A stretch of 64,000 bases of DNA, taken from NCBI GenBank assembly GCA_052390515.1, contig JBQTGV010000072.1, positions 7,172 to 71,171 of the forward strand, given 5' to 3'. Source of the stretch: Candidatus Eiseniibacteriota bacterium (GTDB taxonomy: Bacteria > ARS69). The notes beneath the pieces were generated by a model. It did not search any database. It was not told where the DNA came from and saw only the letters and a list, made by a program, of their open reading frames with translations. Within the stretch, counting starts at the first letter, position 1. Every line of letters starts with the position of its first letter. Below, piece by piece: positions 4,377 to 43,639 of this stretch. The translations under genes were made by a program, and so were the position numbers.

Positions 4377-4395
4377 GACGCGGATCAGGAGCGCA

Positions 4396-4444: not shown

Positions 4445-4489
4445 CAACGCGGGCTCGGCCGTCGCCGGGCCGGCGGCCGCTCGGCTCGG

Positions 4490-7323: not shown

Positions 7324-7502
7324 GGCAGTGCTCGCCCCTTCCGTTCCACGATACGCCGCGCGACCATCGGGTCAAGCCGCCACGGCCGGATCCTGATCAC
7401 CGAAGCACGGTGGCGGGGCGTGGCTCCGCCAGCCGGTGTACGATGGCGGCCGAGCGCCAGGGCGGCCCCCGCCGTCACCACTCTCGAGCAGAGGATTCCC
7501 GT

Positions 7503-11349: not shown

Positions 11350-11381
11350 CGAGTCGTCGCGGAGCTCGGCACGAGCACGGG

Positions 11382-11831: not shown

Positions 11832-11838
11832 GGCCGCC

Positions 11839-24519: not shown

Positions 24520-25157
24520 GATTCCCGGCAGCCTCCGACCGCGTTCTGCTACCCTGGCTCGGGCCGGCGCGGAGGCTGCCCTTGTCGACCACGGAGCAAG
24601 TCCGCGGGCTCCTCGACGGGATGCGGGCGGGGAACGCCGAGGCCCGGGACCGTCTGTTCTCCATCGTGTACCACGACCTCCGTCGCATCGCCCGGAGCCA
24701 CCTCCGCGGCCGGTCCACCGGCACGCTCGGCACGACGGCGATGGTCAACGAAGCCTACTTGCGCCTCGCCGGACCGAACGTCGGCCCCTGGCAGGACCGC
24801 GCGCACTTCTTCGCCGTGGCCTCTCGCGCCATGCGGCAGATCCTCGTCGACCAGGCACGGCGGAAGCTCGCGCAGAAGCGAGGAGGCGGCGCGCCCGTCA
24901 CCAGCTTCGAGTCGCGGGACGCGGGCGAGGAGCCGCGCTTCCTCGAGCTGATCGAGCTGGACGACGCGCTGGGACGTCTCGCCGCGCTCAACGAGCGCCT
25001 GGCGCGCATCGTCGAGCTTCGCTTCTTCGGTGATCTCTCCGAGCAGGAGACGGCCGAAGCGCTCGGCGTCAACGAACGCACCGTGCGCCGCGACTGGCGC
25101 AAGGCGCGCGCGTTCCTGCATCACGTCCTCCGCGAGCCGAAGGCGGGCGGCGAGTGA
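24516..25157 (+). CDS. ECF-type sigma-70 family RNA polymerase sigma factor (kinase-associated subgroup)
   Basis: In-frame tail of ORF 23202..25157. Region 2 and region 4 helices are present (…VYHDLRRIARSHL… …LSEQETAEALGVNERTVRRDWRKARAFL). ATGA overlap on both sides. Confidence 0.8.
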   Translation: MRFPAASDRVLLPWLGPARRLPLSTTEQVRGLLDGMRAGNAEARDRLFSIVYHDLRRIARSHLRGRSTGTLGTTAMVNEAYLRLAGPNVGPWQDRAHFFAVASRAMRQILVDQARRKLAQKRGGGAPVTSFESRDAGEEPRFLELIELDDALGRLAALNERLARIVELRFFGDLSEQETAEALGVNERTVRRDWRKARAFLHHVLREPKAGGE

Positions 25158-28802: not shown

Positions 28803-30566
28803 CTAGATCGCGTACTCCTTCCACCGCCGGTCGACCTTGGCCACGATCTCCGGATCCATCACCAGCGGCTCGGGATAGCCCTGCTTGAACGTCGCGTCGA
28901 TGGCCATGCGGCCGCGGTGCACGGGCCAGGCGCCGTGCAGCTCCGACTGCTCGAAGAACACGTCGCGGGCGGGATCGAAGCGCGTGAAGATGCCCCACAT
29001 CAATTGAGTGCGGTCGTCGAGCGGCACGTCCGGGGAGACTGCCGCGACGATGCGGGGCAGTGCCGCCTGCGGGAGCGCGCGCATCGCCGCGGCCAGAGCC
29101 CCTCGCGGCGACTCCTCCACGTGAATTGCCAGCAGCGTGCGCCCGAACAGCGCCTGTCCCCGGATGCGCCGGTCGACGAGCGACAGGTCGGGAACGGCCG
29201 GCAGCTCCGCTGGCGTGGCTCGGGTCCGCGGCGTCGCGTCGACGATCATCTTGCTGCCGAGGTTCGGAGTGAAGCTGGTGAAGTCCAGCGTGTCGAACGG
29301 CACGCGCGGCAGCAGCAGGAAGTCCTCCTCCGGATCGAAGTTCCTGGCGATGGCCTCGAGAACCTCGTCGAGGTTCCGCGGATTCACCGTGCGACCCACC
29401 ATCACGACGACCTTGGTCAGCCCGAGCTGGCCCTGCCCCAGGAGCCCGAACGCCGTGCGCATCGCCTCCTTGGCGAACCGCTGCTCCACCGACGCGACCA
29501 GCAGGTGGTGGAACCCCGTCTCCTCGAACGCCCACACGTCGCGCACCTCGGGATGCGGCAGCCGGATGAGCGGCCCGATCAGTTCCTGCACGAGGTTGCC
29601 CATGAAGCCGTCCTCCTGCGGCGGCTTGCCGACGACGATCGCGGGGTAGATCGCGTCCTTCCGGCGAAAGACCTTGCGCGCGCGGAACACCGGGAAGGGC
29701 GCCGCCGCGGAGTAGTGGCCGAAGTGATCGCCGAAGGGCCCCTCGCGCCGGCGCTCGCCCGCGGCCACGCTGCCTTCGATGACGAACTCCGCGCCCCGCG
29801 GCACCGGTAGATCCACGGTGACGCCGCGGGAGAGCTCCACTCCCCTACCGCGGAGCAGCCCGACGAAGGCGGTCTCGGGCAGTCCCTCGGGGAGCGGCAT
29901 CATCGCGGCGAGCATGAGCAGAGGGTCCCCTCCCAGCGCCACCGCGACCGGCAGCGATTTGCGCTCCTCCTCCGCCTCGAAGTGGTGGTAGCCGCCGCCC
30001 TTCCCGATCTGGAAGTGCATTCCCGTCTCGGTCGAGTCGTAGACGTGCATGCGGTAGATGCCGACGTTCAGCGAGGCATCGCGCGGGCTGCGCGTGAAAA
30101 CCATCGGGAACGTGAGGAAGGGGCCGCCGTCACCCGGCCAGCAGGTGAGCGCCGGCAGCTGGGTCAGGTCGGGATCCTCCTCGACCTCGCGGACCGGGCC
30201 GCCGGAGGAGATTCGCGGCTTCATGCCGCGGAAGCGCATCAGGTCGGGCAGGTGCCTGAGCAGCAGGCCCGCGCTGGGCGGGTTCAGGTCCTTGGCCAGC
30301 TTCACCAGGGACTCGCCGATCTCAGCCGCCGGCCGGCCGAGCACCAGCTCGATGCGCCGGCGCGAGCCGAACAGGTTGATCGCCAGCGGGAAGGTGCTGC
30401 CTTCGACGCGCTCGAAGAGGAGAGCCGGGCCTTCGCCCCGGACGACGCGTTGCACGATCTCGGTGATCTCGAGCCGCGGGTCGACGGGGACTTTCACCCG
30501 GCGAAGCTCACCCGCCGCCTCGATGGCACGGAGGAATGCGCGAAGGTCGGTGATCGGGCTCGGCAA
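28803..30566 (-). CDS. ubiD: UbiD-family prFMN-dependent decarboxylase (candidate menaquinone/futalosine-pathway decarboxylase)
   Basis: 587 aa. Typical UbiD N-terminus MPSPITDLRAFLRAIEAAGELRRVKVPVDPRLEITEI and conserved core. Confidence 0.85.
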   Translation of the reverse strand: MPSPITDLRAFLRAIEAAGELRRVKVPVDPRLEITEIVQRVVRGEGPALLFERVEGSTFPLAINLFGSRRRIELVLGRPAAEIGESLVKLAKDLNPPSAGLLLRHLPDLMRFRGMKPRISSGGPVREVEEDPDLTQLPALTCWPGDGGPFLTFPMVFTRSPRDASLNVGIYRMHVYDSTETGMHFQIGKGGGYHHFEAEEERKSLPVAVALGGDPLLMLAAMMPLPEGLPETAFVGLLRGRGVELSRGVTVDLPVPRGAEFVIEGSVAAGERRREGPFGDHFGHYSAAAPFPVFRARKVFRRKDAIYPAIVVGKPPQEDGFMGNLVQELIGPLIRLPHPEVRDVWAFEETGFHHLLVASVEQRFAKEAMRTAFGLLGQGQLGLTKVVVMVGRTVNPRNLDEVLEAIARNFDPEEDFLLLPRVPFDTLDFTSFTPNLGSKMIVDATPRTRATPAELPAVPDLSLVDRRIRGQALFGRTLLAIHVEESPRGALAAAMRALPQAALPRIVAAVSPDVPLDDRTQLMWGIFTRFDPARDVFFEQSELHGAWPVHRGRMAIDATFKQGYPEPLVMDPEIVAKVDRRWKEYAI

Positions 30567-30612
30567 CGGGGGGCTCTCCGGACGACGCCAGTCGGGTGGT
30601 CGACGCTAGCAG

Positions 30613-30641
30613 CGGCCCCCCAGGCCGTCAACGAGGGGACT
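30613..30641 (-). promoter_or_regulatory. Putative promoter of UbiD-like gene: TTGACG-N17-TAGCGTCG
   Basis: On the minus strand: cgTTGACGgcctggggggccgctgcTAGCGTcg, ~47 nt upstream of the ATG. The extended -10 region ctgcTAGCGTcg is identical to the UbiX-like promoter at 36884-36913. Confidence 0.45.
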
Positions 30642-30707
30642 GAAACGGGAAGGCCGGCCTTCCGATGGACGAAGGGAGGTCCGAACCCCTTTCCCGGCGG
30701 CTACCCG

Positions 30708-32741
30708 ATGGCGACCCAGTTTCGCGGCTACACCATCCTCGAGACCCTCGGAATCGGCGGCATGGCCTCCGTGTTCCTCGGGGTCCAGGAGAACCTCAAG
30801 CGCCACGTGGCCATCAAGCTGCTGGACAAGCGCCTGGCCCTCTCCGAGGACTTCGTGCGGCGCTTCGAGCGCGAAGCGCGCGCCGCCTCCGAACTGAACC
30901 ACCGTAACATCATCACCATCCACGAGTTCGGCAACGAGGGCGGCGACTACTTCATCGTCATGGAGCACGTGAAGGGATCGGATCTGCAGGCCGTGCTCGA
31001 CCGCGTCACCCGCTTTCCGCCGGAGATCGCGCTGGTGATCCTCGAGGAAGTGGCCACCGGCCTCGCCGCCGCGCACGAGAAGGACATCGTGCATCGGGAC
31101 ATCAAGCCGGCGAACGTGCTGCTCTCCCACAACGGCGACGTGAAGATCACCGACTTCGGTCTGGCGCGGGACTACAGCCTGGATGCGAGCCGGCTCTTCG
31201 ACAGCCTGACTGTCGGCGGCACGGTGCTGGGTACGCCGTCGTACATGTCGCCGGAGCAGGCGTCGGGGCTGTCGCTCGATCACAAGACCGACACGTTCGC
31301 GCTGGGTGTGATGGCCTACGAGATGTTCACCGGGCAGAAGCCCTTCCCGGGCGAGACCTACTCGGCCATCCGCGAGGCGATCCTGGAAGGCGAGCCGCGT
31401 CCGCTCACGCTGCAGCGCCCGCTGGCCACCCCGCAGATCGAGGACATGGTCCGGCGGATGCTGGCGAAGGCGCCGGAGCACCGACCGGACATGCGCCAGC
31501 TCCTGCACATGGTCGAGGCCTGCATGGAGACGGTGGACCCCTCGGGGATGCTGCTGCGCCATCGCCGCCGCTTCCTCGAGAAGTTCGCCGCGGATCCTGA
31601 GAGTTTCTCCTCCCGGCTCGAGCAGGTCGTCGTGCAGAAGAGCCTCGGCCGCGGCCTCTACGCGAAGGCGCTGGGCCTGGAGCGGCTGGACGTCGCGCTG
31701 GAGCATCTGGAGTACGTGCAGCAGAAGGACCCGCAGAACAGCAAGGCGAAGCGCGCGATCGCCGAGATCGTCGACTACGGGAGCGGGACCACCCGGGACC
31801 GCCGATCGAAGGCACCGGCTCGGCCGGAGCGGACCCAGATCGATCGGGCGCCGCGGAAGCCGCGCGTGCGCGTGCCGGAGATCTCGCTCGGGATCGTGAT
31901 CCTCGCCGCGGCGTCCTTCGGCGTCGTCCGCTCCGGGCTGGTGGATCGACTCACCGCGCGAACCGAGCTGGCGGTAGCCGCTCCGACCACGCCCTCGGCG
32001 AGTCCGCCCCCCGCGGTGACGTCGGCCGCGACGACGGCGCTGCCGCCCGCACTCGCCCTTCCGTCCGATCCTCAGCCCGCGGGAACGCCGCCGGCCGATC
32101 TGCCGTCCGCCGAGCCCGCGCCTGCCCAGAAGCCGGCACCGGCCGTCGCGTCCCGGCAGGAGTCGGAGCCGGTTCGCGCCGTCGAGGATGGGGCGCCCGA
32201 GGTCGAGGCCCCGAAGCCTGCACCGCCCAAGGACAGCTGGGTGCGCGTGCGCACGGAACCGGCCGGGAACATCCTCCTGAACGGGAAGCTGCTGGAGTCC
32301 GGTTCCACCGGGCTCGTCTCGCGGGTCGCGCCCGGCGAGACCGTCACGCTGGAGGTGCGGCATCCGGAGCTCTTCGGCTCCAAGACCTGGACGCGGAAGG
32401 TCGCGCCCGGCGACACGCTCGATCTGGGGAAGTACGCCGTGAAGACGGGCACCCTTCGCGTGTCGACCCGCCCGCCGACTCCGGTCGAGGTGCTGATCGA
32501 CGGGCGGGAGACGCGCAAGGAGACCCCCCTGGCCCTGACCGTGACGAGCCGGCAGCAGGTCGTCTCCATCCAGGCACCGGGCTGGATCGTCGAGAAGGCG
32601 GTGGTGAGCGAGCGCAGCGGCGAGGGCACCGCGCGGGAGATCGTGCCCGAGGATCCCGCGCGATTCGCCGGCGTGCCGGTCGACGTCGGCGAGGGACAGG
32701 ACCTCAAGGTCGTCTTTCACCTGGCCAAGGCCGGGGGCTGA
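30708..32741 (+). CDS. Serine/threonine protein kinase with C-terminal PEGA domains
   Basis: The kinase domain starts at MATQFRGYTILETLGIGGMASV (ATG 30708), with HRDIKPANVLL, DFGLAR, SPEQ. One TM helix, an A/P-rich linker, then PEGA repeats (VRTEPAGNILLNGK…, VSTRPPTPVEVLIDGRE…). The upstream 242 aa of the track ORF are artefact. Confidence 0.85.
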   Translation: MATQFRGYTILETLGIGGMASVFLGVQENLKRHVAIKLLDKRLALSEDFVRRFEREARAASELNHRNIITIHEFGNEGGDYFIVMEHVKGSDLQAVLDRVTRFPPEIALVILEEVATGLAAAHEKDIVHRDIKPANVLLSHNGDVKITDFGLARDYSLDASRLFDSLTVGGTVLGTPSYMSPEQASGLSLDHKTDTFALGVMAYEMFTGQKPFPGETYSAIREAILEGEPRPLTLQRPLATPQIEDMVRRMLAKAPEHRPDMRQLLHMVEACMETVDPSGMLLRHRRRFLEKFAADPESFSSRLEQVVVQKSLGRGLYAKALGLERLDVALEHLEYVQQKDPQNSKAKRAIAEIVDYGSGTTRDRRSKAPARPERTQIDRAPRKPRVRVPEISLGIVILAAASFGVVRSGLVDRLTARTELAVAAPTTPSASPPPAVTSAATTALPPALALPSDPQPAGTPPADLPSAEPAPAQKPAPAVASRQESEPVRAVEDGAPEVEAPKPAPPKDSWVRVRTEPAGNILLNGKLLESGSTGLVSRVAPGETVTLEVRHPELFGSKTWTRKVAPGDTLDLGKYAVKTGTLRVSTRPPTPVEVLIDGRETRKETPLALTVTSRQQVVSIQAPGWIVEKAVVSERSGEGTAREIVPEDPARFAGVPVDVGEGQDLKVVFHLAKAGG

Positions 32742-33443: not shown

Positions 33444-36298
33444 CCGCGCGCCCCGTCCGCGTCGCGCTCTCGGTCCTGTCGGTGACGGCGGTGGTGCTCG
33501 CGCCGGCTCCGGGCCGCTGCGTGAACCTCTACGGATGGTCGATCAGCGAGAGCAACACGGATCCGTTCGTGAACTCCGGCTCGGGGTTCCTGGGGAGCCG
33601 GACGGTCTATCTGTGGTACGTGTGCAACTCCTCGGAGGGTCTCGCCGGGGCGGAGTTCAACCTCGCCGCGAGCGGCTTCTCTTTCGCGGGCTTCACGCCG
33701 ACGCCCGCGTTCACCGACGGCGGCTCCGGTGCGTCCCTTCGCCTCACCAGCAACGTGAGCTGCGCGACGGGCCCGATGCTCGCCGGCGCGATCCAGCTCT
33801 CCAGCCTGCTCGTCATCCCCGGGCAGATCTGCATCGTGCCGAACTCGGGCAGCGGCGAGAACGTCTCCTACGACTGCTCCTTCGGCCGGCACTGGCCGAA
33901 CCAGACGATCGGCTACTCCACCGGAGGCGCCATCAGCTGCGTCGAGCTGCTGTGCGATCCACCCGACGCGGATCTGGGTGTCATCAAGAGCGTGAACGAC
34001 AGCAAGCCGAAGGAGGGCAGTCCGGCCCAGTACACCATGCAGGTGACGAACGACGGCCCGCAGACGGTGTGCGACGCGCTCGTCACCGATACATGGCCGC
34101 TTGGCCTGGCCTACGACTCGTCCGCCGCCACCCACGGCTGGTACGACCCGACGTTCGGATCGTGGTCGATCGGCACGCTCGCCCCGGGCGACACGGCCAC
34201 GCTCTGGATCGACTTCCACCCGGAGCCCGGCAGCGCGAACCAGACGATCTGGAACGGCGCCGCCGTGTCCGCCACCGCGGACGACGCGAACAATGCGAAC
34301 AACGCCTCCTGGGTGTCCATCGACGTCGCTCCTCCGGGCACCGCGGATCTCGCCGTGGTCAAGACGGTGGACGATCCCGCGCCCGGCGAAGGCGTCGGCG
34401 CGCTCTACGCCTTGACGGTCGCGAACCAAGGTCCCGACGACGTCTTCGACGCCCTCGTCACCGACTGGATGCCGCTCGGCGTCGTCCACGACTCCTCTGC
34501 AGCGACGCACGGCTCGTACGACGACTTCACGGGGTCGTGGTCGATCGGATTTCTTGCCGCCGGTGATTCGGCGACGCTGTGGATCCACTTCCATCCGGGA
34601 ACGGGATCGGCGGGCCAGACGATCTGGAACACCGCGAACGTCTCCGCCACCGCGTCCGACCCGGACGCTTCCGACAACTCGTCGTCGGTCTCCATCGACG
34701 TCGGCCCGCCCGTGATCAGCGCCACGCTGCCGCAGGTCACGACGGGCGACGGGCTGGACGTGCTCGTTCCGGCCACGATCACGAACGACGTCTACGTGAG
34801 CGCCACGACGCTCCACTACCGGGAAGGCGGCAGCCCGGCCTTCTCGCAGCTTGGCATGACGCGCAGCGCGGAAGGCCAGTGGGAGGCGACGGTGCCCGCG
34901 AGCTCCGTCACCATCCGCGGCGTGCAGTACTTCATCGAGGTGACGCACACCTCGCCGAACGCGCCGGGACTCCGCGCGGTGTCCTACTTCCCGGAGACGA
35001 ACTACCGCAGCATGAACGTGATCGTCCCGTCGCAGTCCATCTCCCTGCCGCCGGCGTCCTACGCGCTGCTCGGCGTCCCGTTCCGCGCGGAGCGCGCCGG
35101 CGACCCTCTCGGCGTCTTCGACGAGCTCGCTCCCTACGACACCAAGCGTTGGCGCTACGGCGTGTGGAACGGCACCGGATACCTCGACGGCCCGGCCGCC
35201 GCCGGGGCGGTCACCCCGGGAAAGAGCTTCTGGATCTACGACAAGAACGGGGCGACCGTCGGAATCGGCGGTCTCTCCGCGGATCTCACCTCCGACCACT
35301 CCGTGGTGCTGCACGCCGGCTGGAACATGGTCGCGAGTCCCTTTGCGTTCGCCGTGCCGGCCGACCAGGTGGTGCGGGACCCCGGCGTGCCGCTGGACTT
35401 CGTGAGCTGGAACGGCTCGGGGTACGACCACTTCAACGCGACGATCGTCCCCGGCCGCGGCTATTGGGTGCTGAACACCACCGCCGCACCACGCACGGTG
35501 ACCTTCCCCGTCGGCGTACTGCCCACGGCGCGGATGCCTCTCGCCGGCGATCCCTGGCTGCCGTCGGGGGACGGCTGGGCTGTCGACGTGCACGCCGCGT
35601 CCGGCCGCGCGGCGGACCGCGTGAACCGCTTCGGCATGCGCGACGGCGCGACCGACTCGTTGGACGAGCTCGACCTGCCGGAGGCGCCCGCGCCGCCCGC
35701 GGACTACCTGGTCGTCGCGTTCCTGGACGGCTCCGGCGCGCTGCTGCAGGTGGATTACCGGAGCCGCCGCGACCAAGGCGCGGCGTGGACGATCGCGGTC
35801 GAGAGTGATGCGTCGCCGCACGTGGTCCGGCTCGACTTCGAGGGCGTCGACGCGGCGCCCGCGGAGTGGGAGGTCTTCGCGCTGATCGGCGAGGCGCGGC
35901 AGGACCTTCGCGCCGATCCTTCGCTCGAGACGTTGACCGGTTTCGGGGCGACGTCGCGCCGCATCCATGTCGTCGCCGGACCGCCGGCCTTCGTTCGCGC
36001 CTTCACCGTTCCGGCCGAGCCCATGCAGCTCGTGGTCGGGCCGAACCCGTTCCTCGCGCCGTCCTCGACGACGCTCTCGCTGCTCGTGCCGTCGCCCGGG
36101 CCGGCCAGCCTCGCCGTCTACGACGTCGCCGGGCGGACGGTGCGCGTGCTGCACCGCGGGCCGCTCGACGCGGGACTCCGCGCGTTCTCGTGGAACGGCC
36201 GCGACGAATCCGGCCGCGACGTCGCCGCGGGAGTGTACTTCGTGCGCGCGCAGTCGATGGCGGCGAGCGAGGTCAAGAAGATCCTCGTGCTTCGCTAG
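33440..36298 (+). CDS. Large secreted protein with tandem DUF11 ('conserved repeat domain') modules and C-terminal FlgD-Ig-like/CTD domain
   Basis: Start MTARPVRVALSVLSVTAVVLAPAPG (ATG 33440). Repeated DUF11-like units (VTDTWPLGLAYDSSAATHGWYDPTFGSWSIGTLAPGDTATLWIDF, VTDWMPLGVVHDSSAATHGSYDDFTGSWSIGFLAAGDSATLWIHF). C-terminus …VYDVAGRTVRVLHRGPLDAGLRAFSWNGRDESGRDVAAGVYFVRA. Confidence 0.8.
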   Translation: MTARPVRVALSVLSVTAVVLAPAPGRCVNLYGWSISESNTDPFVNSGSGFLGSRTVYLWYVCNSSEGLAGAEFNLAASGFSFAGFTPTPAFTDGGSGASLRLTSNVSCATGPMLAGAIQLSSLLVIPGQICIVPNSGSGENVSYDCSFGRHWPNQTIGYSTGGAISCVELLCDPPDADLGVIKSVNDSKPKEGSPAQYTMQVTNDGPQTVCDALVTDTWPLGLAYDSSAATHGWYDPTFGSWSIGTLAPGDTATLWIDFHPEPGSANQTIWNGAAVSATADDANNANNASWVSIDVAPPGTADLAVVKTVDDPAPGEGVGALYALTVANQGPDDVFDALVTDWMPLGVVHDSSAATHGSYDDFTGSWSIGFLAAGDSATLWIHFHPGTGSAGQTIWNTANVSATASDPDASDNSSSVSIDVGPPVISATLPQVTTGDGLDVLVPATITNDVYVSATTLHYREGGSPAFSQLGMTRSAEGQWEATVPASSVTIRGVQYFIEVTHTSPNAPGLRAVSYFPETNYRSMNVIVPSQSISLPPASYALLGVPFRAERAGDPLGVFDELAPYDTKRWRYGVWNGTGYLDGPAAAGAVTPGKSFWIYDKNGATVGIGGLSADLTSDHSVVLHAGWNMVASPFAFAVPADQVVRDPGVPLDFVSWNGSGYDHFNATIVPGRGYWVLNTTAAPRTVTFPVGVLPTARMPLAGDPWLPSGDGWAVDVHAASGRAADRVNRFGMRDGATDSLDELDLPEAPAPPADYLVVAFLDGSGALLQVDYRSRRDQGAAWTIAVESDASPHVVRLDFEGVDAAPAEWEVFALIGEARQDLRADPSLETLTGFGATSRRIHVVAGPPAFVRAFTVPAEPMQLVVGPNPFLAPSSTTLSLLVPSPGPASLAVYDVAGRTVRVLHRGPLDAGLRAFSWNGRDESGRDVAAGVYFVRAQSMAASEVKKILVLR

Positions 36299-36849
36299 GG
36301 CAGCTCCTCCCGCCGCCACCCGCGCTCCTGCGGAGTGCCGGTCAGGCTCTGCACGACGCGGTCCACGAAGTCGCCGACGAGGCGCTCCATCGAGTCCGGC
36401 TTCAGGTAGAAGAAAGGCGACACCGGCATGATGAGGCCGCCCTCGCGGGACACGCGCAGCGCGTTCTCCAGCGCGATGCCGGTGAGCGGGCTTTCCCGCA
36501 GACCGATGACGAGGCGACGGCGCTCTTTCAGGGCGATGTGGCAGACCCGCGTGCCCAGCGTGTCCCCGAGCCCGGCCGCGACCTTCGCCAGGAAGCTCGC
36601 GCTGGCGGGCAGCACGGCCACGGCATCGAACGGGTTCGAGCCGGAGGAGAGCGGCGAGGCGAGGTCGTCGTCCGCGAACACGGCGTCCGCCCGACCCTCC
36701 AAGTCCTTGGGAGACAGCCCGGTCTCGTCCTTGAGGACGACCTTGCCCCACCTGGTGAGGATGGCGAGGCGCTCTCCGGGGAGGCGCTTCAGCAGCTCCA
36801 GACCGAAGATCGATCCGGAAGCGCCGGTGATCACGACGATGGTCCGCAC
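36295..36849 (-). CDS. ubiX: UbiX-family flavin prenyltransferase (prFMN synthase)
   Basis: MRTIVVITGASGSIFGLELLKRL… typical UbiX/Pad1. 184 aa. Confidence 0.85.
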   Translation of the reverse strand: MRTIVVITGASGSIFGLELLKRLPGERLAILTRWGKVVLKDETGLSPKDLEGRADAVFADDDLASPLSSGSNPFDAVAVLPASASFLAKVAAGLGDTLGTRVCHIALKERRRLVIGLRESPLTGIALENALRVSREGGLIMPVSPFFYLKPDSMERLVGDFVDRVVQSLTGTPQERGWRREELP

Positions 36850-36883
36850 GGGCGCTCTCCCTGGGCTCGGGCTGCGGCCGACG

Positions 36884-36913
36884 ACGCTAGCAGGGCCGTT
36901 CCGGAAGCGTCAA
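36884..36913 (-). promoter_or_regulatory. Putative promoter of UbiX-like gene: TTGACG-N18-TAGCGTCG
   Basis: On the minus strand: cgTTGACGcttccggaacggccctgcTAGCGTcgtcg, ~35 nt upstream of the ATG. Shares the TTGACG hexamer and the ctgcTAGCGTcg extended -10 with the UbiD-like promoter. Confidence 0.45.
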
Positions 36914-37076
36914 CGGGGCGGCCCCGCAGGAAGGGCGCATGCCGCTTCGACGGCTGTGGCGACGAGCCCCTGGAATCGGGGCGGCGCGGTGGTGTACGAT
37001 CGACTCGTTCTCCCCCGAGCCTCGGGTCCAGCCCGGCACCGCGGGGGCCTTCGCACCGAGCCACAAGGGGCGGCCC

Positions 37077-37580
37077 ATGAAGTCTTTCGCTACGATCTCG
37101 CTCTGGTCGACCTGTGCGGTCGCCGTTCTGGTCACCGGCGCCTCCGCGGCGCCTTCCCGGGACCATGCCGGCATCGGCATCAGCGCCGCTGCGGCAGGAC
37201 CTTTTCCACCGACCCTGCCGGACATCCAGGCGAACGTGTTCACGCCGAGCTGCGCCGTGAGCTTCTGTCACGGAGCGGGAATGTCGGCGAATCTCGATCT
37301 GCGCGACGGCAACTCGTTCTCGAGCCTCGTGAACGTGCCGTCCCTCGTGTCGCCGGGATCGACGCGCGTCGTTCCCTTCGACGCGAACGGCAGCTTCCTC
37401 GTCTGCAAGCTGGAGGCGTGCTCGTGGCTCGTGGGATCGCAGATGCCGCTGATCGGCGGGCCGCTCTCGCAGGACAAGATCAACGTGATCCGCGCCTGGA
37501 TCGGGCTCGGCGCGCCCGAGTTCCCCTCGGTCGGCGTCGAGGCGAACACCTGGGGCCGCGTGAAGACCATGTACCGGTAG
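37077..37580 (+). CDS. Small secreted PSCyt1-like (Planctomycete cytochrome c-type) domain protein with variant C-x4-CH motif
   Basis: Start MKSFATISLWSTCAVAVLVTGASA (ATG 37077, AAGGGG Shine-Dalgarno). …FTPSCAVSFCHGAG..LDLRDG…LV…PG…MP…PLS…I..I..WI..GAP matches the PSCyt1 layout, but with CAVSFCH (CX4CH) where CxxCH is expected. Confidence 0.6.
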   Translation: MKSFATISLWSTCAVAVLVTGASAAPSRDHAGIGISAAAAGPFPPTLPDIQANVFTPSCAVSFCHGAGMSANLDLRDGNSFSSLVNVPSLVSPGSTRVVPFDANGSFLVCKLEACSWLVGSQMPLIGGPLSQDKINVIRAWIGLGAPEFPSVGVEANTWGRVKTMYR

Positions 37581-37625
37581 CCGCTGTGCCGTGAGAGGGC
37601 TCGCGGAAGAGTCCTCGGAAGGGCC

Positions 37626-37645
37626 GAAGGGCGGGAGCCATGCTC
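37626..37645. repeat. Direct repeat copy 1 (cgaagggcgggagccatgct), embedded in the terminator hairpin
   Basis: Identical 20-mer recurs at 38721-38740. An upstream ggaagag (37606-37612) also recurs at 38713-38719. Confidence 0.7.
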
Positions 37646-37663
37646 CCGCCCTTTCGCTTTTGC
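37627..37663 (+). terminator. Rho-independent terminator
   Basis: GAAGGGCGGGAGC-CATG-GCTCCCGCCCTT (12-bp stem, 4-nt loop) followed by TCGCTTTTGCG, 46 nt after the stop at 37578-37580. Confidence 0.8.
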
Positions 37664-37680
37664 GCTGCACGCTCCGTGCC

Positions 37681-38337
37681 TCAGCGTGGTGGATTCCCAC
37701 CCGGGCGCGCGACGCGCGCAAGTCGTCGCTCGAGATCCGAGGCGAAGTCCTGAAGGTCCGCGGGCGAAACGTCGCCGGGAATCCTGGCGTCCGCGGCGAT
37801 CTCGATCTGCGAGAGGATCCACGCGAGCTGCGCTGCGGACATCGCTCCGTCCTTCCTCTCCGCGAGCGCAAGGGCCTCCTCCACGCGAAGACCGGCTCGC
37901 TCGAGGAAGAGGACGTCCACGAGATCACGGATCTCCGCACGGGAAAGCAGCGCACAGAGTTTGTTGGCCAGGATCTCCTCGGGCGCGTCGAGGACGACCA
38001 CCCCCTGCCGGCGCTTCTCCGTGTCCCCCTGAGGTGCCGTATCGAAGACCAGATCCACGATCACCGCCTCATCGCTCCGCCGCACGAGGCGACGCCGGAA
38101 GCTGGGAGAGGTGCGGACGGCTTCCACGGCTGCTCCCAGCTCGCGCGCGACGTCCCGCAGGGCCGCTTCGCCCTCGTCAAGGATCTCCGACGTCGTGAAC
38201 AGATCGAGATCCTGCGTCGTACGATGCCCAAGGTAGAAGCCGGCGAGAGCTGCTCCACCGGTCAGAAAAAAGCGCGACTCCCGACGAAAGAAACTCTCGA
38301 GGATCTCCCGCTGCAGCCTACCGAGTCGGTCGGTCAA
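37681..38337 (-). CDS. AbiEii/AbiGii-family (DUF1814) nucleotidyltransferase toxin
   Basis: Polβ-type NTase motif FLTGGAALAGFYLGHRTTQDLDLF, with a C-terminal helical domain typical of AbiEii (…EEILANKLCALLSRAEIRDLVDVLFL…). Confidence 0.75.
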   Translation of the reverse strand: MTDRLGRLQREILESFFRRESRFFLTGGAALAGFYLGHRTTQDLDLFTTSEILDEGEAALRDVARELGAAVEAVRTSPSFRRRLVRRSDEAVIVDLVFDTAPQGDTEKRRQGVVVLDAPEEILANKLCALLSRAEIRDLVDVLFLERAGLRVEEALALAERKDGAMSAAQLAWILSQIEIAADARIPGDVSPADLQDFASDLERRLARVARPGGNPPR

Positions 38338-38611
38338 CGATCAGCCCCTCCTCGCGCCACCGCCCCAGGAGATACTGCCAGAAAGCCTTCTGCCGGCCGA
38401 GATGCTTGGAGAGCGCGTCCCAGCTGGCCACCACCTCCTCGACCGTCGTGAACCTCCACACGTCACGGTCACGTGCCTCGCGGAGGATCTTGCCGAGAAG
38501 CCGCACACGCTCGGCTTCCGACGCGGTTTGCAGCCGCCGCCGCAGCTCCCCCACCGTCATGGGGTCGTCCCAGAGGAAGTAGGGAACCGCGTCTTCGCGG
38601 TCGAGATCCAT
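38318..38611 (-). CDS. Small protein upstream of/overlapping the AbiEii-like gene (putative cognate antitoxin/partner)
   Basis: ~98 aa from MLSMDLDREDAVPYFLWDDPMTVGELRRRL…; stop overlaps the toxin start by 20 nt. Start ambiguous between ATG at 38611 and 38602. Confidence 0.5.
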   Translation of the reverse strand: MDLDREDAVPYFLWDDPMTVGELRRRLQTASEAERVRLLGKILREARDRDVWRFTTVEEVVASWDALSKHLGRQKAFWQYLLGRWREEGLIVDRPTR

Positions 38612-38720
38612 GGAGAGCATCGTCGCCTGGCCTCGCATTCCGTTGTCCAGTTCACAGGGTAGCGCGCGACGCCCCCGGCGTCTCGAACGTTCCGTCCGTG
38701 TGCGAGCGTGCTGGAAGAGA

Positions 38721-38740
38721 CGAAGGGCGGGAGCCATGCT
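38721..38740. repeat. Direct repeat copy 2 (cgaagggcgggagccatgct)
   Basis: Exact copy of 37626-37645 but lacking the right hairpin arm, so no terminator can form here. Lies in the upstream region of the TA partner gene. Confidence 0.7.
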
Positions 38741-38753
38741 TCCTGCGCGCGAT

Positions 38754-39391
38754 CTACAGGCCCCGTTCGCGCACCGGCCGAGACACTTCCCGATAGGATA
38801 CGTCGATCGTCGCATCCGCGACCGAAAGGTAGCGGCTCACCGACGTGGACCGGATCCCCTCGCCGGCGTACGGCGGGACGGTGAGCAGGAATCCGTCGGC
38901 GAACATCCCCTCCTCGACCTGTGCCTTCACCAGACTGGTGAGATCGATGCCGATGGTGTGGCCGCCTTGCGAGAGATCCACGTCGACGCGACTGTAGAGA
39001 TCCCGGATCGACGTCCCCGCCGGGCCGCTGCCAGCTTGTCCAAGTCGCCCGCTCCGGCGGTCCAGGCAGCCGTGACCGGATGAACCTGGATCTGCTCCCG
39101 GCAGGGAGTCCGGCTGGGCGTCGACGTCGAAGGTCAGCGTGACCCCGAAGGATGAGCGCGCTCTCGGGCAGCCCGAGATCCGGAAGGCGGAAAGAGGATC
39201 CGTTCCTCTCCGCGGCCGTTGGTGATGGTGCTCACGTCCCGGATGCCGGAGGTGATCTGCGTGGCGGTCGAGGGTTGTGCCGCTGCGAGGAGGACCGCGC
39301 TGATCGAATCTCGAATCGCCGGAGGTGCCATGGGGAAGACGGGCGCCTCGCCGACGACTTGATCGTAGACCCTTGCGGGCGGCCAGTTCAA
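38754..39391 (-). pseudogene. Frameshifted 3' remnant of a larger gene (no intact N-terminus)
   Basis: Protein-like translation in two minus-strand frames: …AVLLAAAQPSTATQITSGIRDVSTITNGRGEERILF (39134..39391) and …DLYSRVDVDLSQGGHTIGIDLTSLVKAQVEEGMFADGFLLTVPPYAGEGIRSTSVSRYLSVADATIDVSY (to the stop at 38754). No start or 5' part; the upstream space is occupied by the + strand NTase gene. Confidence 0.4.
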
Positions 39392-39446
39392 GCGGGTCGC
39401 CCACGAACCGCTTGCCGGGACTGCATCCGTCCCTTAAACCGACCCC

Positions 39447-39941
39447 ATGGCCGGTCCCATCGAGGAAGCCCTGCGCGCCTTGAACGCTGCCGAGGTGCGT
39501 TACCTCGTCACCGGCGGGGTGGCCGTCGTGCTGCACGGCTACCTCCGGACCACGGCCGACCTCGACCTCTGGGTGCAGCTCGAGCCCGAGAACCTGCGGC
39601 ACGCCACACGCGCGCTCGGGGCCCTTGGCTACCGGCCGCGCGCCCCGGTGAAGCTCGACGAGTTCGCCGATCCCGCGAAGCGGCGCGAGTGGATCGAAGA
39701 GAAGGGCCTCGTGGTATTCTCGCTCTGGAATCCGAGCGCGCCGCTGGAGATCGACCTCTTTGTGAAGGACCCGTTCGACTTCGGGGCGGCGTGGGCACGG
39801 GCCGTCCGCGCGCCGCTCGAGACCACGGACGCCATGGTCGTCGCGCTGGAGGACCTCATCGCCATGAAGCAGCGCGTCGGCCGGCCGCGCGATCTCGAGG
39901 ACGTCGAGGCGCTGCGAGCGCTGCGCGATGCCTCAGGGTAG
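39447..39941 (+). CDS. Nucleotidyltransferase-fold protein (second NTase module)
   Basis: MAGPIEEALRALNAAEVRYLVTGGVAVVLHGYLRTTADLDLWV shows the same GG…G..R.T.DLDL Polβ-NTase signature as the AbiEii-like protein. Confidence 0.6.
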   Translation: MAGPIEEALRALNAAEVRYLVTGGVAVVLHGYLRTTADLDLWVQLEPENLRHATRALGALGYRPRAPVKLDEFADPAKRREWIEEKGLVVFSLWNPSAPLEIDLFVKDPFDFGAAWARAVRAPLETTDAMVVALEDLIAMKQRVGRPRDLEDVEALRALRDASG

Positions 39942-39950
39942 TGGCAAGCA

Positions 39951-40193
39951 ATGACCGAGCCGAGGATCGATGGCGTGGACGCGCCGTTCCCCGACACGAG
40001 CTGGGAGGCTCACCGGCGTCGCCGCGCCGTCCAGGGTCTGGATCTCACGCCCGCCGAGCGTCTCCGCTGGCTCGAGTCGACGATGGCGACGATGCGCGAG
40101 TGGCGGGGGCGTGCCCACGCACTACCCGACTCCGAACCCCACCAGCGCCAGCACGACGAACCCCAGCCACGCGTTGATCCGGAAGAACGCTAG
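39951..40193 (+). CDS. Small hypothetical ORF downstream of the NTase (possible partner); overlaps 3' end of ubiA-like gene
   Basis: 80 aa, no recognisable domain. Its 3' end overlaps the convergent UbiA-like gene by ~70 nt, so it may be spurious. Confidence 0.25.
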   Translation: MTEPRIDGVDAPFPDTSWEAHRRRRAVQGLDLTPAERLRWLESTMATMREWRGRAHALPDSEPHQRQHDEPQPRVDPEER

Positions 40194-40958
40194 ATCCACC
40201 TTGCGCGCCAGCAGGTGCTCGGCCAGGAGCAGCGCGCCGACCGCGCCGGCGAGCGGCACGACGAACGGCCCTTTCAGGTGCCGTACCGCCATCGCCAGAA
40301 GCAGGGCGAAGGCCACCGAGTGCACGCCAGCCGCGACGGCCAGCGCGCGCCGGCTCCCCAGCGCGGTCGGCAGCGAACGCAGCCCCGCCTTCCGGTCGAA
40401 GTCCTCGTCGAGCGTCGCGTAGATGACGTCGAACCCCGCGACCCACAGCCAGGTGAACCCGACGAGCAGATGCACGGCACCGAGCGGCAGCACCCGCCCG
40501 GTCACCGCCGCATACGCCGCCAGTGGCCCGAAGGCGAGCGCTGCCCCAACCCCAAAGTGCGCGAGCGGCGTCCATCGCTTCAGGAACGGATACAGGGCGA
40601 AGAGCGCGAGTGGCACCGGCGAGAGGCGAAGGCAGATCGGCGGCAGGTTCGCGACGCCGAGATAGAAGAGCGCGGTCCCCGCCGCGGCCACGGCCCACGC
40701 CACCCCGAGGCTCATCCGGCCGGCCGGCAGCTCCCGCGCGGCGGTCCGCGGATTCCGCGCGTCGATCCGCCGGTCGATGATGCGGTTCAGCGCCATGGCA
40801 AGCGTCCGAGCCCCCGTCCCGGCGACGAGGATCCAGAGCAGGGGCTTCGCGTCCGGCCAGCCTCCCGCGCCGAGCATGGCTCCGGCGAGCAGCAACGGCA
40901 GCGAGAACAGCGTGTGCTCGAACTTGACGAACTCGAGCAGCGTGCGGACCCGGATCAC
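40122..40958 (-). CDS. ubiA: UbiA-family polyprenyltransferase (candidate menaquinone prenyltransferase)
   Basis: Polytopic, with UbiA motifs (…NRIIDRRIDARNPRTAARELP… …VAGFDVIYATLDEDFDRKAGLRSL). No in-frame ATG precedes the conserved VIRVRTLLEFVKFEH, so a GTG start at 40956-40958 is inferred. Confidence 0.7.
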   Translation of the reverse strand: MIRVRTLLEFVKFEHTLFSLPLLLAGAMLGAGGWPDAKPLLWILVAGTGARTLAMALNRIIDRRIDARNPRTAARELPAGRMSLGVAWAVAAAGTALFYLGVANLPPICLRLSPVPLALFALYPFLKRWTPLAHFGVGAALAFGPLAAYAAVTGRVLPLGAVHLLVGFTWLWVAGFDVIYATLDEDFDRKAGLRSLPTALGSRRALAVAAGVHSVAFALLLAMAVRHLKGPFVVPLAGAVGALLLAEHLLARKVDLAFFRINAWLGFVVLALVGFGVG

Positions 40959-40965
40959 CGCACGC

Positions 40966-43494
40966 TCATCCGTCGAGCAGCGGCACGGCGAGGTGATCCT
41001 TGGCGACGAACAAGCTGCCCTCGGTGGTCCCGCCCGGGGCGGCCTCCGCGAGCACCTTGCCCAGCGCCGCGCATGAACCGCCGCACGCCAGCGCGGTGAC
41101 GAATGCGCCGGTGATCCTCGCCACGTCCTCCGCGGACTCGTGCGCGAACTCGAGCCGGAAGTGCCGGACTCCCGCCGCACGCCAGCGGCCCAGGTGCCGG
41201 CTCGCCTCCTGCGCCTGCGCGCCGAACACCGTGTTGCGGCAGCCCACGTCCGCCATCACCGGGTGCGCGCGCCCGTTCGTGTCCCGCAGCAGGACGCGAT
41301 GGCGCTCGCAGGGCTTGCCGCAGTCGCGGAAGCTCGTGCCCGTGGAGAGGAACCGGCAGAACACGCAGTGTTCGGTGTGGAATACGGGCAGGTGATGGTA
41401 GGCGACGACCTCGATCCGCTCCGCGCCGACGGAGCGCGCCAGCGCGGCGACTTGCGCCGCGTTCAGGTCGTGCGCCGGAGTGATCCGTCGCAGCCCGAGC
41501 GCGAGCAGCGTCTCCGCCGACACTGCGTTCGCCGCGTTCAGGCTGAAGTCGCCGGTGAGCGGCGGCGGCTCCTCCTGAGAGAGCGGGCCTTGGGAGAGCG
41601 CGTGCAGCAGACCGATCGAGCGCACCAGGATCTCGCAGTCGAGCCGCGCCAGGAACGTGACGATGCGCTCCTCGGCGGGCTTCAGGATCCGGGGGCTGGC
41701 CACGCGCGCGGTGACGCCCGCAGCCCGCACGCGCTCGACCGAGGGGCGAAGCCCATAGAGGTCCAGGTAGTCCAGGGTGATGCTGGAAGGAGCGGCTTGC
41801 AGCGCGGCCTCCAGCTGCTCCGGGGTGCGCACCAGCAAGTGGATCTCGGGCGCCGCCGCCCACTCGGCCGATGCCGCCGACGCGGCCAATGCTGCATCCC
41901 GCCCCGCCCTCACCGCAGTCAGCGCCGCCGTCGCCTCCGCGACCTCACGGGCCGGCACCGCGCCCTGCCGCTCCTGTAACGCCACGACCGCCGCGCGCCG
42001 CAGGTCGTTCAGCCACGACACCGGCGCGAAGGCACTGCCCGTCGTCTCCAGCTTCACTTCCACCAGTTCGTAGGGCGAACCTCCGAGGCGCCCGAGCTGC
42101 GCGGTGAGCAACGACTCGTCGAGCGGCCTCTTCGCCGCCGTCTCGAGCGGCAGCGGCGAGACGACCTCGACGCGGATCTCGGGCGAAGACTCGAGGCTCC
42201 ACTCCAGCACCAGAGGCTCGCCGGCGCGCGCCGTCGCGTGCGCGCGGACCGGCTGCCGCCGCACCGGGGCGGCCGGCCGGGTGAGCTCGCCGGCCACGCG
42301 GTCGATCTCGGGATCGTGCGTCCGCCACAGGAGATCGCCGGCGGCCATCCGGGCGAAGTCCACCGCGCCGTTCGCGAAGAGCAGCTCGACGGTGCCCCCC
42401 GCGGCCTTCCGCACCGACCAGACGCGACCACCTTCCTCGCGTTCCTCGGGGCTGCGCCGGTGCGCGGCGTCGAACACGATGCCGTCGCCGGCCTCGAGGG
42501 GCGCCGTCCCGTTCGCCTCCGACGGAGCGATGGTCACGCGGTCCGCGCCCACGCGCGTCACACGCCCCATCAGCACGCCCCGGTGCCGCGGCGATCGCCC
42601 CCGCACCACCGTCTGATGATTCACGCCGGTGACGAAGAACGGCCCGGACCCGCGCGAGTACACCTGCTCCAGGCGAAGCGCCTCGAGCGGATCGAGCGCC
42701 ACCGGCCTCCCCGCGCAGACCGCGTCCACGGCGCGCCGGTACGCCCGCGTCGTCAACGCGACATAGTTCTCGTCCTTGTAGCGCCCCTCGATCTTGAGCG
42801 CGTCGAGCCCGGCCCGCACGATCTCCGGAACCTGCGCCACCGTGGAAAGATCACCGGGCGAGAGCAGGTACCGGGCATCGCCCAGCGGCTTCGCCTTTCC
42901 GTCCACGAGCAGCTCGTAGGGCAGCCGGCACGCCTGCGCGCACTGCCCGCGGTTCGCGCTGCGCCCGCCCCAGGCCTCCGACGACAGACACTGCCCGGAG
43001 TAGGACACGCACAACGCGCCGTGCACGAACATCTCCAGCTCGCAATCGGTGGCGGCGCGGACCATGCGGATCTCTTCCAGAGAGAGCTCGCGGGCCAGGA
43101 TGACGCGCGTCACGCCGAGGGACTGCGCCAGCCGAACGCCCTCCGCGCTGGTGAAGGTCAGCTGCGTGCTGGCGTGCACCGGCAGCTCCGGTGCGACGCG
43201 GCGCGCCACCCGCACCGCACCCACGTCCTGCACGATGACCGCATCCGCGCCGGCCGCAGCGATGGCGCCGACGGCGCGCGCCGCTTCCTCCAGCTCGTGG
43301 TCGAAGACCAGCGTGTTGAAGGCGACGTAGCCCTTCACGCCGCGGCGGTGCAGCGTGCCGATCACGTCGGATAGCTCGGCCAGGGCGAAGCCCACCTTGG
43401 CCCGCGCCGAGAAATGCCGGAGCCCGAAGTAGACCGCGTCCGCGCCGGCCTCGACGGCGGCGGCGAGCTCCGGCCAGCCTCCCGCCGGGCTCAT
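40966..43494 (-). CDS. Peptidase U32-family protein, long form with C-terminal extension (DUF3656-like)
   Basis: Conserved U32 N-terminus MSPAGGWPELAAAVEAGADAVYFGL (ATG 43492-43494, GGAG 5 nt upstream). Cys-rich U32 core (HGALCVSYSGQCL…CAQACRLPY) and C-terminal 4-Cys cluster. 8 nt upstream of the UbiA-like gene. Confidence 0.8.
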   Translation of the reverse strand: MSPAGGWPELAAAVEAGADAVYFGLRHFSARAKVGFALAELSDVIGTLHRRGVKGYVAFNTLVFDHELEEAARAVGAIAAAGADAVIVQDVGAVRVARRVAPELPVHASTQLTFTSAEGVRLAQSLGVTRVILARELSLEEIRMVRAATDCELEMFVHGALCVSYSGQCLSSEAWGGRSANRGQCAQACRLPYELLVDGKAKPLGDARYLLSPGDLSTVAQVPEIVRAGLDALKIEGRYKDENYVALTTRAYRRAVDAVCAGRPVALDPLEALRLEQVYSRGSGPFFVTGVNHQTVVRGRSPRHRGVLMGRVTRVGADRVTIAPSEANGTAPLEAGDGIVFDAAHRRSPEEREEGGRVWSVRKAAGGTVELLFANGAVDFARMAAGDLLWRTHDPEIDRVAGELTRPAAPVRRQPVRAHATARAGEPLVLEWSLESSPEIRVEVVSPLPLETAAKRPLDESLLTAQLGRLGGSPYELVEVKLETTGSAFAPVSWLNDLRRAAVVALQERQGAVPAREVAEATAALTAVRAGRDAALAASAASAEWAAAPEIHLLVRTPEQLEAALQAAPSSITLDYLDLYGLRPSVERVRAAGVTARVASPRILKPAEERIVTFLARLDCEILVRSIGLLHALSQGPLSQEEPPPLTGDFSLNAANAVSAETLLALGLRRITPAHDLNAAQVAALARSVGAERIEVVAYHHLPVFHTEHCVFCRFLSTGTSFRDCGKPCERHRVLLRDTNGRAHPVMADVGCRNTVFGAQAQEASRHLGRWRAAGVRHFRLEFAHESAEDVARITGAFVTALACGGSCAALGKVLAEAAPGGTTEGSLFVAKDHLAVPLLDG

Positions 43495-43639
43495 GATCTC
43501 CGGTTTCGATGGCTGGACGCGCTCGATCATCCCGGCTCCACGTCGACGAAGGGCCGCGATTCTACCAGAGCGCCCGCGGCCTTGGTGCTATGCTGCACCG
43601 TCTCCCCAGAGGGAGTTTCTCTTGGTCGTCCTTCCGGAA

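Follow-up and report, generated by a model that had tools for sequence, protein, structure and literature searches.

Toxins of the DUF1814/AbiEii-MenT type are expected to add nucleotides to the 3' ends of tRNAs, by which translation is blocked. How chromosomal toxin-antitoxin modules move between genomes has been a loose end for a long time, as they are patchily distributed and laterally transferred and usually show no visible mobility genes next to them. The subject of this work is one such module, which lies in a stretch of 64,000 nt (the window) from contig JBQTGV010000072.1 of a Candidatus Eiseniibacteriota bacterium (assembly GCA_052390515.1, positions 7,172 to 71,171 of the forward strand); all positions below are those of the window unless a locus number is given. 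The two genes are bounded by direct repeats with an exact core of 20 bp, which makes a copy-to-copy unit of 1,096 bp. We think that there is about an even chance that this unit is a horizontally acquired, self-contained, integrase-less integrative toxin-antitoxin cassette, with the 20-bp repeat as its integration junction.

The closest described toxins are AbiEii of S. agalactiae and MenT1-4 of M. tuberculosis. Four motifs define the DUF1814 family, motifs I and II being hG[GS]x~15DhD with an Arg, motif III KLxAaxxR and motif IV +DxxD (PMC3985639). The pair in the window resembles the AbiE and MenAT systems in its match to PF08843, in the presence of the four motifs and in having the antitoxin gene upstream and overlapping. 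It differs from AbiE in the antitoxin: that of AbiE is AbiEi (COG5340), a protein of ~200-300 aa with a winged helix-turn-helix at its N terminus and a C-terminal domain, whereas the partner found here has 94-97 aa and is unmatched. A precedent for a short antitoxin that has no DNA-binding domain is MenA1, of 68 aa (PMC10435456). A further difference from AbiE and MenAT is that the toxin of the window is shorter (218 aa) and has no match to a MenT structure; its activity is a predicted one. As regards mobility, the closest described elements are the cis-mobilizable elements (CIMEs), which are attL/attR-flanked remnants of integrative and conjugative or integrative and mobilizable elements (ICEs, IMEs) that have no integration genes, and which can accrete in tandem at att sites (PMC5704250).

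The original prediction placed a DUF1814/AbiEii nucleotidyltransferase and an overlapping partner in the ~1.1 kb between the repeat copies, and this is borne out. The toxin matches PF08843 (AbiEii) with 60.1 bits against a gathering cutoff of 22.5 (E = 3.9e-16, residues 19-201), and the partner gene, which is upstream, overlaps the toxin gene by 20 nt. The NCBI annotation of the toxin is AbiEii/AbiGii family toxin, and 20 AbiEii models of PADLOC match it weakly. All four DUF1814 motifs are present, as GG27-28, DLD43-45 with R39, KLxALxxR126-133 and RDLVD137-141, and the residues G27, G28, R39, D43, D45, K126, L127, R133, R137, D138 and D141 are invariant in an alignment of 20 homologues. No solved structure was retrieved when the PDB was searched with the single toxin sequence; the toxin profile gave only weak matches there, to the chains 4o8s and 4ok0 described as 'Putative' (E ~0.005), and none to a MenT.

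The partner belongs to a sharply conserved family of ~95 aa with the motif PYFLWD...LLGKILREARD...LGRRR.FWEFLL. It has no match in Pfam or PADLOC, and none in the PDB, which was searched both with the sequence itself and with a family profile; an AlphaFold model made without an alignment reached a predicted local distance difference test score (pLDDT) of 63, which is too low for a fold search. Since the partner has 94-97 aa and no AbiEi match, the pair would work like MenAT/AbiE without being an AbiEi-AbiEii system; it is thus best described as a DUF1814 toxin with a non-AbiEi antitoxin, and functionally it appears most like a MenAT/AbiE pair. The partner presumably neutralises the toxin. A palindrome that lies 57-71 nt in front of the start codon of the partner gene could be an autoregulatory operator.

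Homologous loci were retrieved for comparison and are numbered with an L; 80 of them are from genomes, and metagenome loci were added. The partner is found directly upstream of the toxin in 80/80 genome loci, from Acidobacteriota, Planctomycetota, Myxococcota and others, and also in the metagenome loci wherever the upstream sequence is covered, with L138 as the sole exception. The closest toxin-antitoxin homologues are 61-63% identical among the genome loci and 70% identical among the metagenome loci. Lateral spread of the gene pair fits with these figures, because the best identity is only 61-70%. The G+C content at third codon positions (GC3) is 0.763 for the toxin and 0.837 for the partner, against 0.883±0.029 for 40 window genes, with a minimum of 0.81; two genes nearby are native-looking in this respect (0.881 for cyt167, which encodes a secreted protein, and 0.903 for NT164, which encodes another nucleotidyltransferase). 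The foreign GC3 of the toxin-partner pair therefore points to a comparatively recent import. Nucleotide homology to the closest relative of the cassette, which is 70% identical, ends at the coding region, so the limits of the window cassette cannot be mapped by comparison.

The repeat itself, CGAAGGGCGGGAGCCATGCT, has two exact copies in the window, and only these two are found even if up to 3 mismatches are allowed; the expectation from shuffled sequences is a mean of 0.02 matches, and two or more matches were obtained in 0/100 shuffles. The pair of 20-mers had thus been recognised correctly, except that copy 1 is at 37625-37644 and not, one base further on, at 37626-37645. The heptamer ggaagag said to precede each copy is in register at copy 2, but at copy 1 it stands 13 nt further upstream. 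Gapless extension of the repeat gives 28/31 identical positions (37617-37647 versus 38713-38743). A longer gapped repeat taking in the entire hairpin described below was also sought, and the flank similarity was not significant. Copy 1 is 36 nt past the toxin stop and 44 nt past the cyt167 stop, while copy 2 precedes the partner start by 109 nt and follows the stop of a neighbouring pseudogene by 13 nt. The unit consequently holds the two genes with 109 nt upstream and 36 nt downstream of them, and it sits between the convergent 3' ends of cyt167, which is native, and of the pseudogene, which encoded a secreted protein and lies on the same strand as the cassette, upstream of its genes. Relatives of the locus (L082-L089) contain no copy of the 20-mer at up to 4 mismatches, so it is not a member of a repeat family in the range checked; in all fetched loci, the matches at this tolerance amount to two unrelated ones of 16/20, in L006 and L061.

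Copy 1 constitutes the left arm and the loop of a strong terminator hairpin and copy 2 has no right arm, as had been proposed. The hairpin core is a perfect 13-bp stem (37626-37638/37642-37654) with a 3-nt loop, inside an extended helix, and the 80 nt around copy 1 fold with -46.3 kcal/mol (z = -3.6). The sequence UUUCGCUUUUG follows the hairpin on the + strand, and because the T-tract is on this strand only, the hairpin is oriented as the terminator of cyt167. For copy 2 the fold is nothing special (z = 0.16) and no complementary arm is present. The proposal that an insertion had split the terminator is not supported, as the completing arm and the T-tract belong to the repeat-bounded unit, in the stretch from copy 1 to the toxin gene, and a simple target duplication would have put the whole hairpin at copy 2. 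Either the complementary arm arrived with the cassette, or a complete hairpin was once present at both junctions and the arm at copy 2 has since gone. The repeat is internally redundant (GAAGGGC-CGAAGGGC). A promoter/terminator scan of 36000-41500 gave no sigma-70-like promoter; the same scan missed the hairpin owing to its T-tract rule.

The principal new finding concerns the family. For each locus, the 600 nt upstream of the partner were aligned to the 600 nt downstream of the toxin with a threshold of at least 40 bits, and size-matched segments drawn from those loci were used as controls. Flank repeats at this threshold were obtained in 16/130 loci versus 6/320 control segments (odds ratio 7.3, p = 1.6e-5); direct repeats therefore recur around the same gene pair elsewhere, in favour of the earlier view of them as a signature of integration. 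On the partner side the median gap from repeat to start codon is 42 nt, on the toxin side the median gap from stop codon to repeat is 39 nt, and the repeat-to-repeat spacing is 1000-1096 bp in 13 loci, including the 1,096 bp of the window. Their sequence is specific to each site, where it corresponds to the end of a host gene. The sources are the part of tRNA-Lys(UUU) that starts in the anticodon stem and runs to the 3' end (51-58 nt, L003), the last ~20 codons of dihydropyrimidinase (nine loci), the 3' end of uvrA (L045, where the translated repeat was read by eye), the 5' G-loop region of a Ser/Thr kinase gene (L037 and L019, read from the translation) and, in L065, a PSCyt1 cytochrome gene at its 3' end (76 nt, 100% identical).

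The last of these loci belongs to a cultured bacterium, Polyangium fumosum DSM 14668, in which perfect 76-bp repeats (L065 5077-5152 and 10681-10756) bound a unit of 5.5 kb that encodes a 1486-aa protein, with weak sub-threshold matches to an Mrr endonuclease and a P-loop NTPase, followed by the toxin-antitoxin pair. Cytochrome gene and toxin gene converge there, as do cyt167 and the toxin gene in the window. Considering all repeat pairs, the lengths are 20-190 nt and the identities 78-100%. Some pairs are perfect or nearly so (76/76 in L065, 70/71 in L030 and 50/51 in L003), and several are only 78-88% identical, with differences that resemble the divergence between species; the downstream copy of L018 matches the dihydropyrimidinase ends of other species as well as its own.

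Comparison of loci with one another also points to a discrete unit. In several locus pairs the cassette has 81-95% nucleotide identity and the flanks are unrelated. Thus, L136 and L139-144 are 95% identical over 1,081 nt, and L101 and L105 are 88.7% identical over 999 nt, from a TTGACG-17-TAGAAT promoter to 2 nt past the stop; the same cassette is also present with different flanks in L016/L036/L019 versus L121, in L038 versus L049 and in L133 versus L149. Moreover, the host-like segment stays at the toxin end even though the adjacent upstream gene is not its source in L046, L150, L022 and L163. In L150 the dihydropyrimidinase gene is 3.5 kb upstream, at the head of an array, and in L163 the segment mismatches the actual insertion point. 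No conserved cassette termini or inverted repeats were found across the loci compared. In L056/L064, L027/L035, L008/L010 and other close pairs, homology often extends over at least 1.5 kb upstream and stops 0-60 nt past the toxin stop. Because homology between close genomes stops there, the toxin end marks a synteny breakpoint.

The host-like segment delimits arrays of small cargo in L150, L152, L017, L132 and L032, and the dihydropyrimidinase-type repeat is present in two to four copies per locus, separating cargo units. Two Pyrinomonadaceae-type contigs (L150 1-7331 and L152 1-6678) carry such arrays downstream of dihydropyrimidinase, with copies of the last ~50-70 nt of that gene, core GGCGACGGGCAATTTTTGAARCGCGGAAC, as separators. 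Judged from the translations, the cargo includes a XisH/XisI-like pair, an 866-aa DNA methylase/restriction-like protein together with the toxin-antitoxin pair studied here, and a PIN-like pair; a decayed second copy of the toxin-antitoxin pair is also present, and beta-lactamase-like, YxiG-like, DUF4440 and GTP cyclohydrolase II proteins are supported by Pfam. In L011 and L029 there is ~1.8 kb of additional cargo upstream of the partner.

These observations suggest how the cassette could move. An excised and probably circular copy would carry a short host-like sequence beside the 3' end of the toxin gene, and Campbell-type reciprocal recombination with the matching sequence at the end of a host gene would leave this sequence duplicated. 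The catalyst might be a recombinase encoded elsewhere, acting in trans, or host recombination, and the addictive toxin-antitoxin pair would resist loss while the surrounding DNA erodes. We favour Campbell-type integration because the repeats are target-gene ends, a repeat copy moves together with the toxin end, units stand in tandem arrays and the same unit is found at different sites. A bolder version, which we put forward tentatively and regard as doubtful, is that ~1-kb addiction cassettes as a class carry a mimic of a host-gene end beside the toxin stop, integrate there with no recombinase of their own and accrue, along with further small units of defence or toxin-antitoxin genes, into integron-like arrays. 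For such array-forming addiction cassettes, the 3' end of a housekeeping gene would serve as the attachment site, and the activity would be provided in trans, by an unrecognised function, or by host recombination.

The likeness to CIMEs consists of direct repeats that take in a target gene's end, of a unit with no integrase and of tandem arrays split by repeats. Given this CIME-like pattern of the family, the 20-mers of the window are read as attL/attR-like junctions. The differences are that the cassette units are of 1.0-1.5 kb, with one or two genes, and that their content recurs at different sites, while no parent ICE or IME and no integrase was found near any sampled locus. Integron cassettes, and clusters of attC sites lacking integron-integrases (CALINs), are alike in being small units that have no recombinase, in the site-like segment after the stop, in forming arrays and in having toxin-antitoxin cargo, which integron-type arrays commonly contain. 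They differ in that the repeats here are host-gene ends and not attC, with no GTTRRRY/RYYYAAC core and no family-wide hairpin, in that no IntI was found, and in that at least one cassette (L101/L105) has its own promoter. The 100 nt after the toxin stop have a mean z of -0.25 in 149 loci versus -0.21 in controls. Membership among integron cassettes was rejected, as the boundaries have no GTTRRRY core and the 149 loci no excess of structure. A transposon with target-site duplication was also discarded, in view of the absence of shared termini and of a transposase, the 78-100% identity of the repeat pairs and the location of the hairpin arm inside the unit. Casposons, Cas1 integration at CRISPR arrays and IS1634-like elements are known for long target repeats of variable length and for inserting preferentially into tRNA genes or at the 3' ends of genes. 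Here, in contrast, there is no Cas1 or transposase and there are no terminal inverted repeats, the repeat pairs have often diverged and the repeat travels with the cassette.

A recombinase or a carrier was also searched for. The original statement that the window has no integrase or transposase is supported, since a recombinase motif was found in no plausible window gene; a scan for tyrosine-recombinase motifs gave matches in the window only in non-coding frames, and none in 97 loci of at least 6 kb. When 120 neighbouring ORFs were surveyed with Pfam, none of the families with two or more members was an integrase, a resolvase or a transposase. The gene pair was not found in phage or IMG/VR collections, and on plasmids only distant matches (32-34% identity) were obtained. 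A lone IS200-like Y1 transposase gene is present in L013 (7408-7911), just upstream of the dihydropyrimidinase that precedes the cassette.

Several points weigh against an integrative cassette. That the intermediate is circular, how it recombines and that the pair acts as toxin and antitoxin are all inferred, and no recombinase was found in the unit, in the window or in the sampled neighbours. The repeat of the window is short, with 20 exact bases, and beyond the 28/31 extension the similarity is at the level of shuffled sequences (p = 0.61 for the right flank and 0.34 for the left). The geometry is also awkward, as a terminator that faces so as to serve the native cyt167 has its arm and T-tract inside the unit. 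In the family, only ~12-15% of the loci have repeats and many of the repeat-positive loci are orthologous; as they represent roughly nine independent sites, the p-value overstates independence. In L030 and L041 the repeat takes in part of the module itself, which needs extra events. The tight limits of homology could reflect selection together with deletion bias and not the ends of a defined element. Finally, neither an empty site nor a close cassette-free genome is present among the relatives retrieved, as synteny with L082/L088 is lost at 39309 and L083 ends before the site is reached.

An unlikely but substantial competitor is that the cassette is all that remains of a larger, integrase-bearing island, a true CIME. 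Such an island would have generated attL and attR on integration and then lost by deletion all but the addictive pair, in which case the pair never moved as a 1-kb unit. The repeat of L003, which starts in the anticodon stem of tRNA-Lys, is what we take to be the classic footprint of a tyrosine integrase. Larger repeat-bounded units with the gene pair at the toxin-side end are known from L065 (5.5 kb) and from L011 and L029 (~1.8 kb extra), synteny is frequently lost just past the toxin stop when close strains are compared, and CIMEs are by definition decayed elements that keep attL and attR (PMC5704250). For the cassettes to have arisen in this way, however, deletions would have had to halt ~0-110 nt from the pair on both sides, sparing the att copies, at about nine sites; in addition, the same ~1-kb cassette, 86-95% identical, is found in unrelated contexts, and even the larger units have no integrase. 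True target-site duplication, in which unrecognised machinery makes staggered cuts of 20 to more than 100 nt at gene ends that are then filled in, much as Cas1-type integrases do at a smaller size, we think clearly improbable. It would account for repeats that are locus-specific and host-derived, for the perfect or near-perfect pairs in L065, L030 and L003, for the variable repeat length (20-190 nt) and for the failure to find a recombinase gene. It is at odds with the species-like divergence of the pairs that are 78-88% identical (L018), with the host-like segment being kept at the toxin end in other contexts and mismatching the insertion point in L163, and with the lack of conserved termini or inverted repeats; it predicts the whole hairpin at copy 2, and the opposite is seen in the window.

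Slippage or ectopic repair might otherwise have duplicated part of the terminator locally and so produced copy 2, independently of the pair, which would have arrived by ordinary homologous or illegitimate recombination. Only 20 exact bases are shared, the GC-rich hairpin is slippage-prone and internally redundant, the flank similarity is not significant and ~85% of the family loci have no repeats. We nevertheless judge this very unlikely, as coincidence would be needed for the copies to bracket exactly the foreign pair at the distances (36 and 109 nt) that are usual in the family, and repeats are ~7-fold enriched over the control segments. There remains the case of an artefact or of a common repeat, either a terminator family like the repetitive extragenic palindromic (REP) sequences or a misassembly at a shared k-mer, for which we see hardly any chance. 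The window does come from a metagenome-assembled genome, and the five indels of the pseudogene, located in G/C runs, could hint at local problems of sequence quality. The 20-mer, however, has only two copies in the 64 kb (up to 3 mismatches) and none in L082-L089 (up to 4); an exact repeat of 20 bp is below the k-mer length of assemblers, and two joins at one 20-mer would be required. An independent Logan assembly is 99.9% identical over 39235-40259, and the neighbouring genes are all intact.

We think that the integrative-cassette reading is worth pursuing because it gives the movement of chromosomal toxin-antitoxin genes a concrete footprint: a two-gene unit of ~1 kb, duplicated host-gene ends, several independent targets, arrays and no recombinase found. 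The repeat signature generalises across phyla and so offers a testable route for toxin-antitoxin mobility. If the reading is true, it provides a handle for finding the recombination activity responsible, it explains the small integrase-less islets of defence or toxin-antitoxin genes at gene ends, and it extends logic of the integron or CIME type to such soil phyla as Acidobacteriota, Myxococcota and Eiseniibacteriota. If only decayed islands are involved, the family would be a clean example of addiction modules that outlive their vehicles. In either case the annotation of the window is corrected on three counts: the AbiEii/MenT-type pair is foreign and its antitoxin is from an uncharacterised family, the gene next to it is a pseudogene with several frameshifts, and the second nucleotidyltransferase module is independent (Table 1).

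Table 1. Features of the window between ubiX and the U32 peptidase gene, in order of position.
Feature	Positions	Strand	Remarks
ubiX	36295-36849	-	
cyt167, 167-aa secreted protein resembling PSCyt1 (planctomycete cytochrome c)	37077-37580	+	convergent with toxin
Hairpin terminator	37616-37664	+	fold z = -3.6; T-tract on + strand only
Direct repeat copy 1	37617-37647 (exact 20-mer core 37625-37644)	+	left arm and loop of hairpin
Toxin, 218-aa DUF1814/AbiEii-MenT-type nucleotidyltransferase	37681-38337	-	PF08843 and motifs
Partner, presumed antitoxin, ~94-97 aa	38318-38611	-	conserved 5' neighbour of toxin
Palindrome GACGCC-CCC-GGCGTC	38668-38682		read from sequence
Direct repeat copy 2	38713-38743 (exact core 38721-38740)	+	no complementary arm
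Frameshifted full-length pseudogene, secreted protein of 186-192 aa	38754-39331	-	homologue alignment
NT164, 164-aa DUF6036-type nucleotidyltransferase	39447-39941	+	separate two-gene module
Small ORF, 80-aa partner of NT164	39951-40193	+	3' end overlaps ubiA 3' end
ubiA	40122-40958	-	
U32 peptidase	40966-43530	-	

The reading of the DNA beyond copy 2 had to be revised. It had been taken for a 3' gene fragment with no start (38754-39391), its 5' side occupied by a nucleotidyltransferase gene and a small ORF, and nested insertions into a resident gene had been suggested as the cause of its disruption. When the reconstructed translation of the pseudogene was used as a query, five intact homologues of 127-192 aa with signal peptides were obtained, which align to the window from 39331 (ATG) to 38763. 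The gene is therefore full length, with its own ATG at 39331, and its 5' side is not taken up by NT164 and the small ORF. It is broken by five frame-shifting indels, of which one is a 2-nt deletion and four are 1-nt insertions in runs of C/T or G; every one of them moves the frame by +1, and all fall within ~200 nt. It is ~84% identical to the intact homologues at the nucleotide level, similar to ubiA versus its relatives, with no obvious excess of substitutions. The indels represent either real decay or local sequence error. In the relatives, the intact homologues are located after genes of beta-helix proteins, in a different context.

Nor is nested insertion supported by the order NT164-small ORF-ubiA, which is kept in relatives. 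The order U32-ubiA-small ORF-NT164 is found in relatives with 85-87% UbiA identity (L083, and L082 with an insertion), and because the arrangement is conserved there, the NT164 module is not a recent insertion into the pseudogene. The NT164 family comprises a DUF6036-type nucleotidyltransferase of 164-168 aa followed by a protein of ~60-80 aa with F(D/E)EHRR...LTPAERLRWLEETM, and this two-gene unit is also present in unrelated genomes (L170 3001-3689 and L172 3001-3707), in L172 between dnaK and dnaJ and on the opposite strand. No direct repeats flanking NT164-type modules were found. The only Rfam match is a sub-threshold one to Twister-P5 (39414-39464, - strand, 23.7 bits versus a gathering cutoff of 37.6, E = 0.1), which is situated between pseudogene and NT164 and runs into the first bases of NT164; it is probably due to chance.

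The corner of the genome between ubiA and NT164 is a spot of repeated insertion. In L082, the relative with 87% identity, a block of 9.2 kb (4092-13276) lies inside the homologue of the small ORF, between ubiA and NT164. It contains a CHAT protease-TPR gene, the gene of a Big_5/FG-GAP/FlgD_ig protein, several unknowns and a second DUF6036 nucleotidyltransferase, and nothing convincing was obtained when direct repeats were sought at its junctions. L083 ends inside NT164. The rest of the L082 contig (L088) is homologous to the window only down to 39309, after which it has a different gene of at least 1016 aa. [quoted passage not shown] Further away, the window contains two ORFs of 977 aa on the + strand (25034-27964 and 29811-32741), ~4.8 kb apart and of similar composition, which are possibly paralogous.

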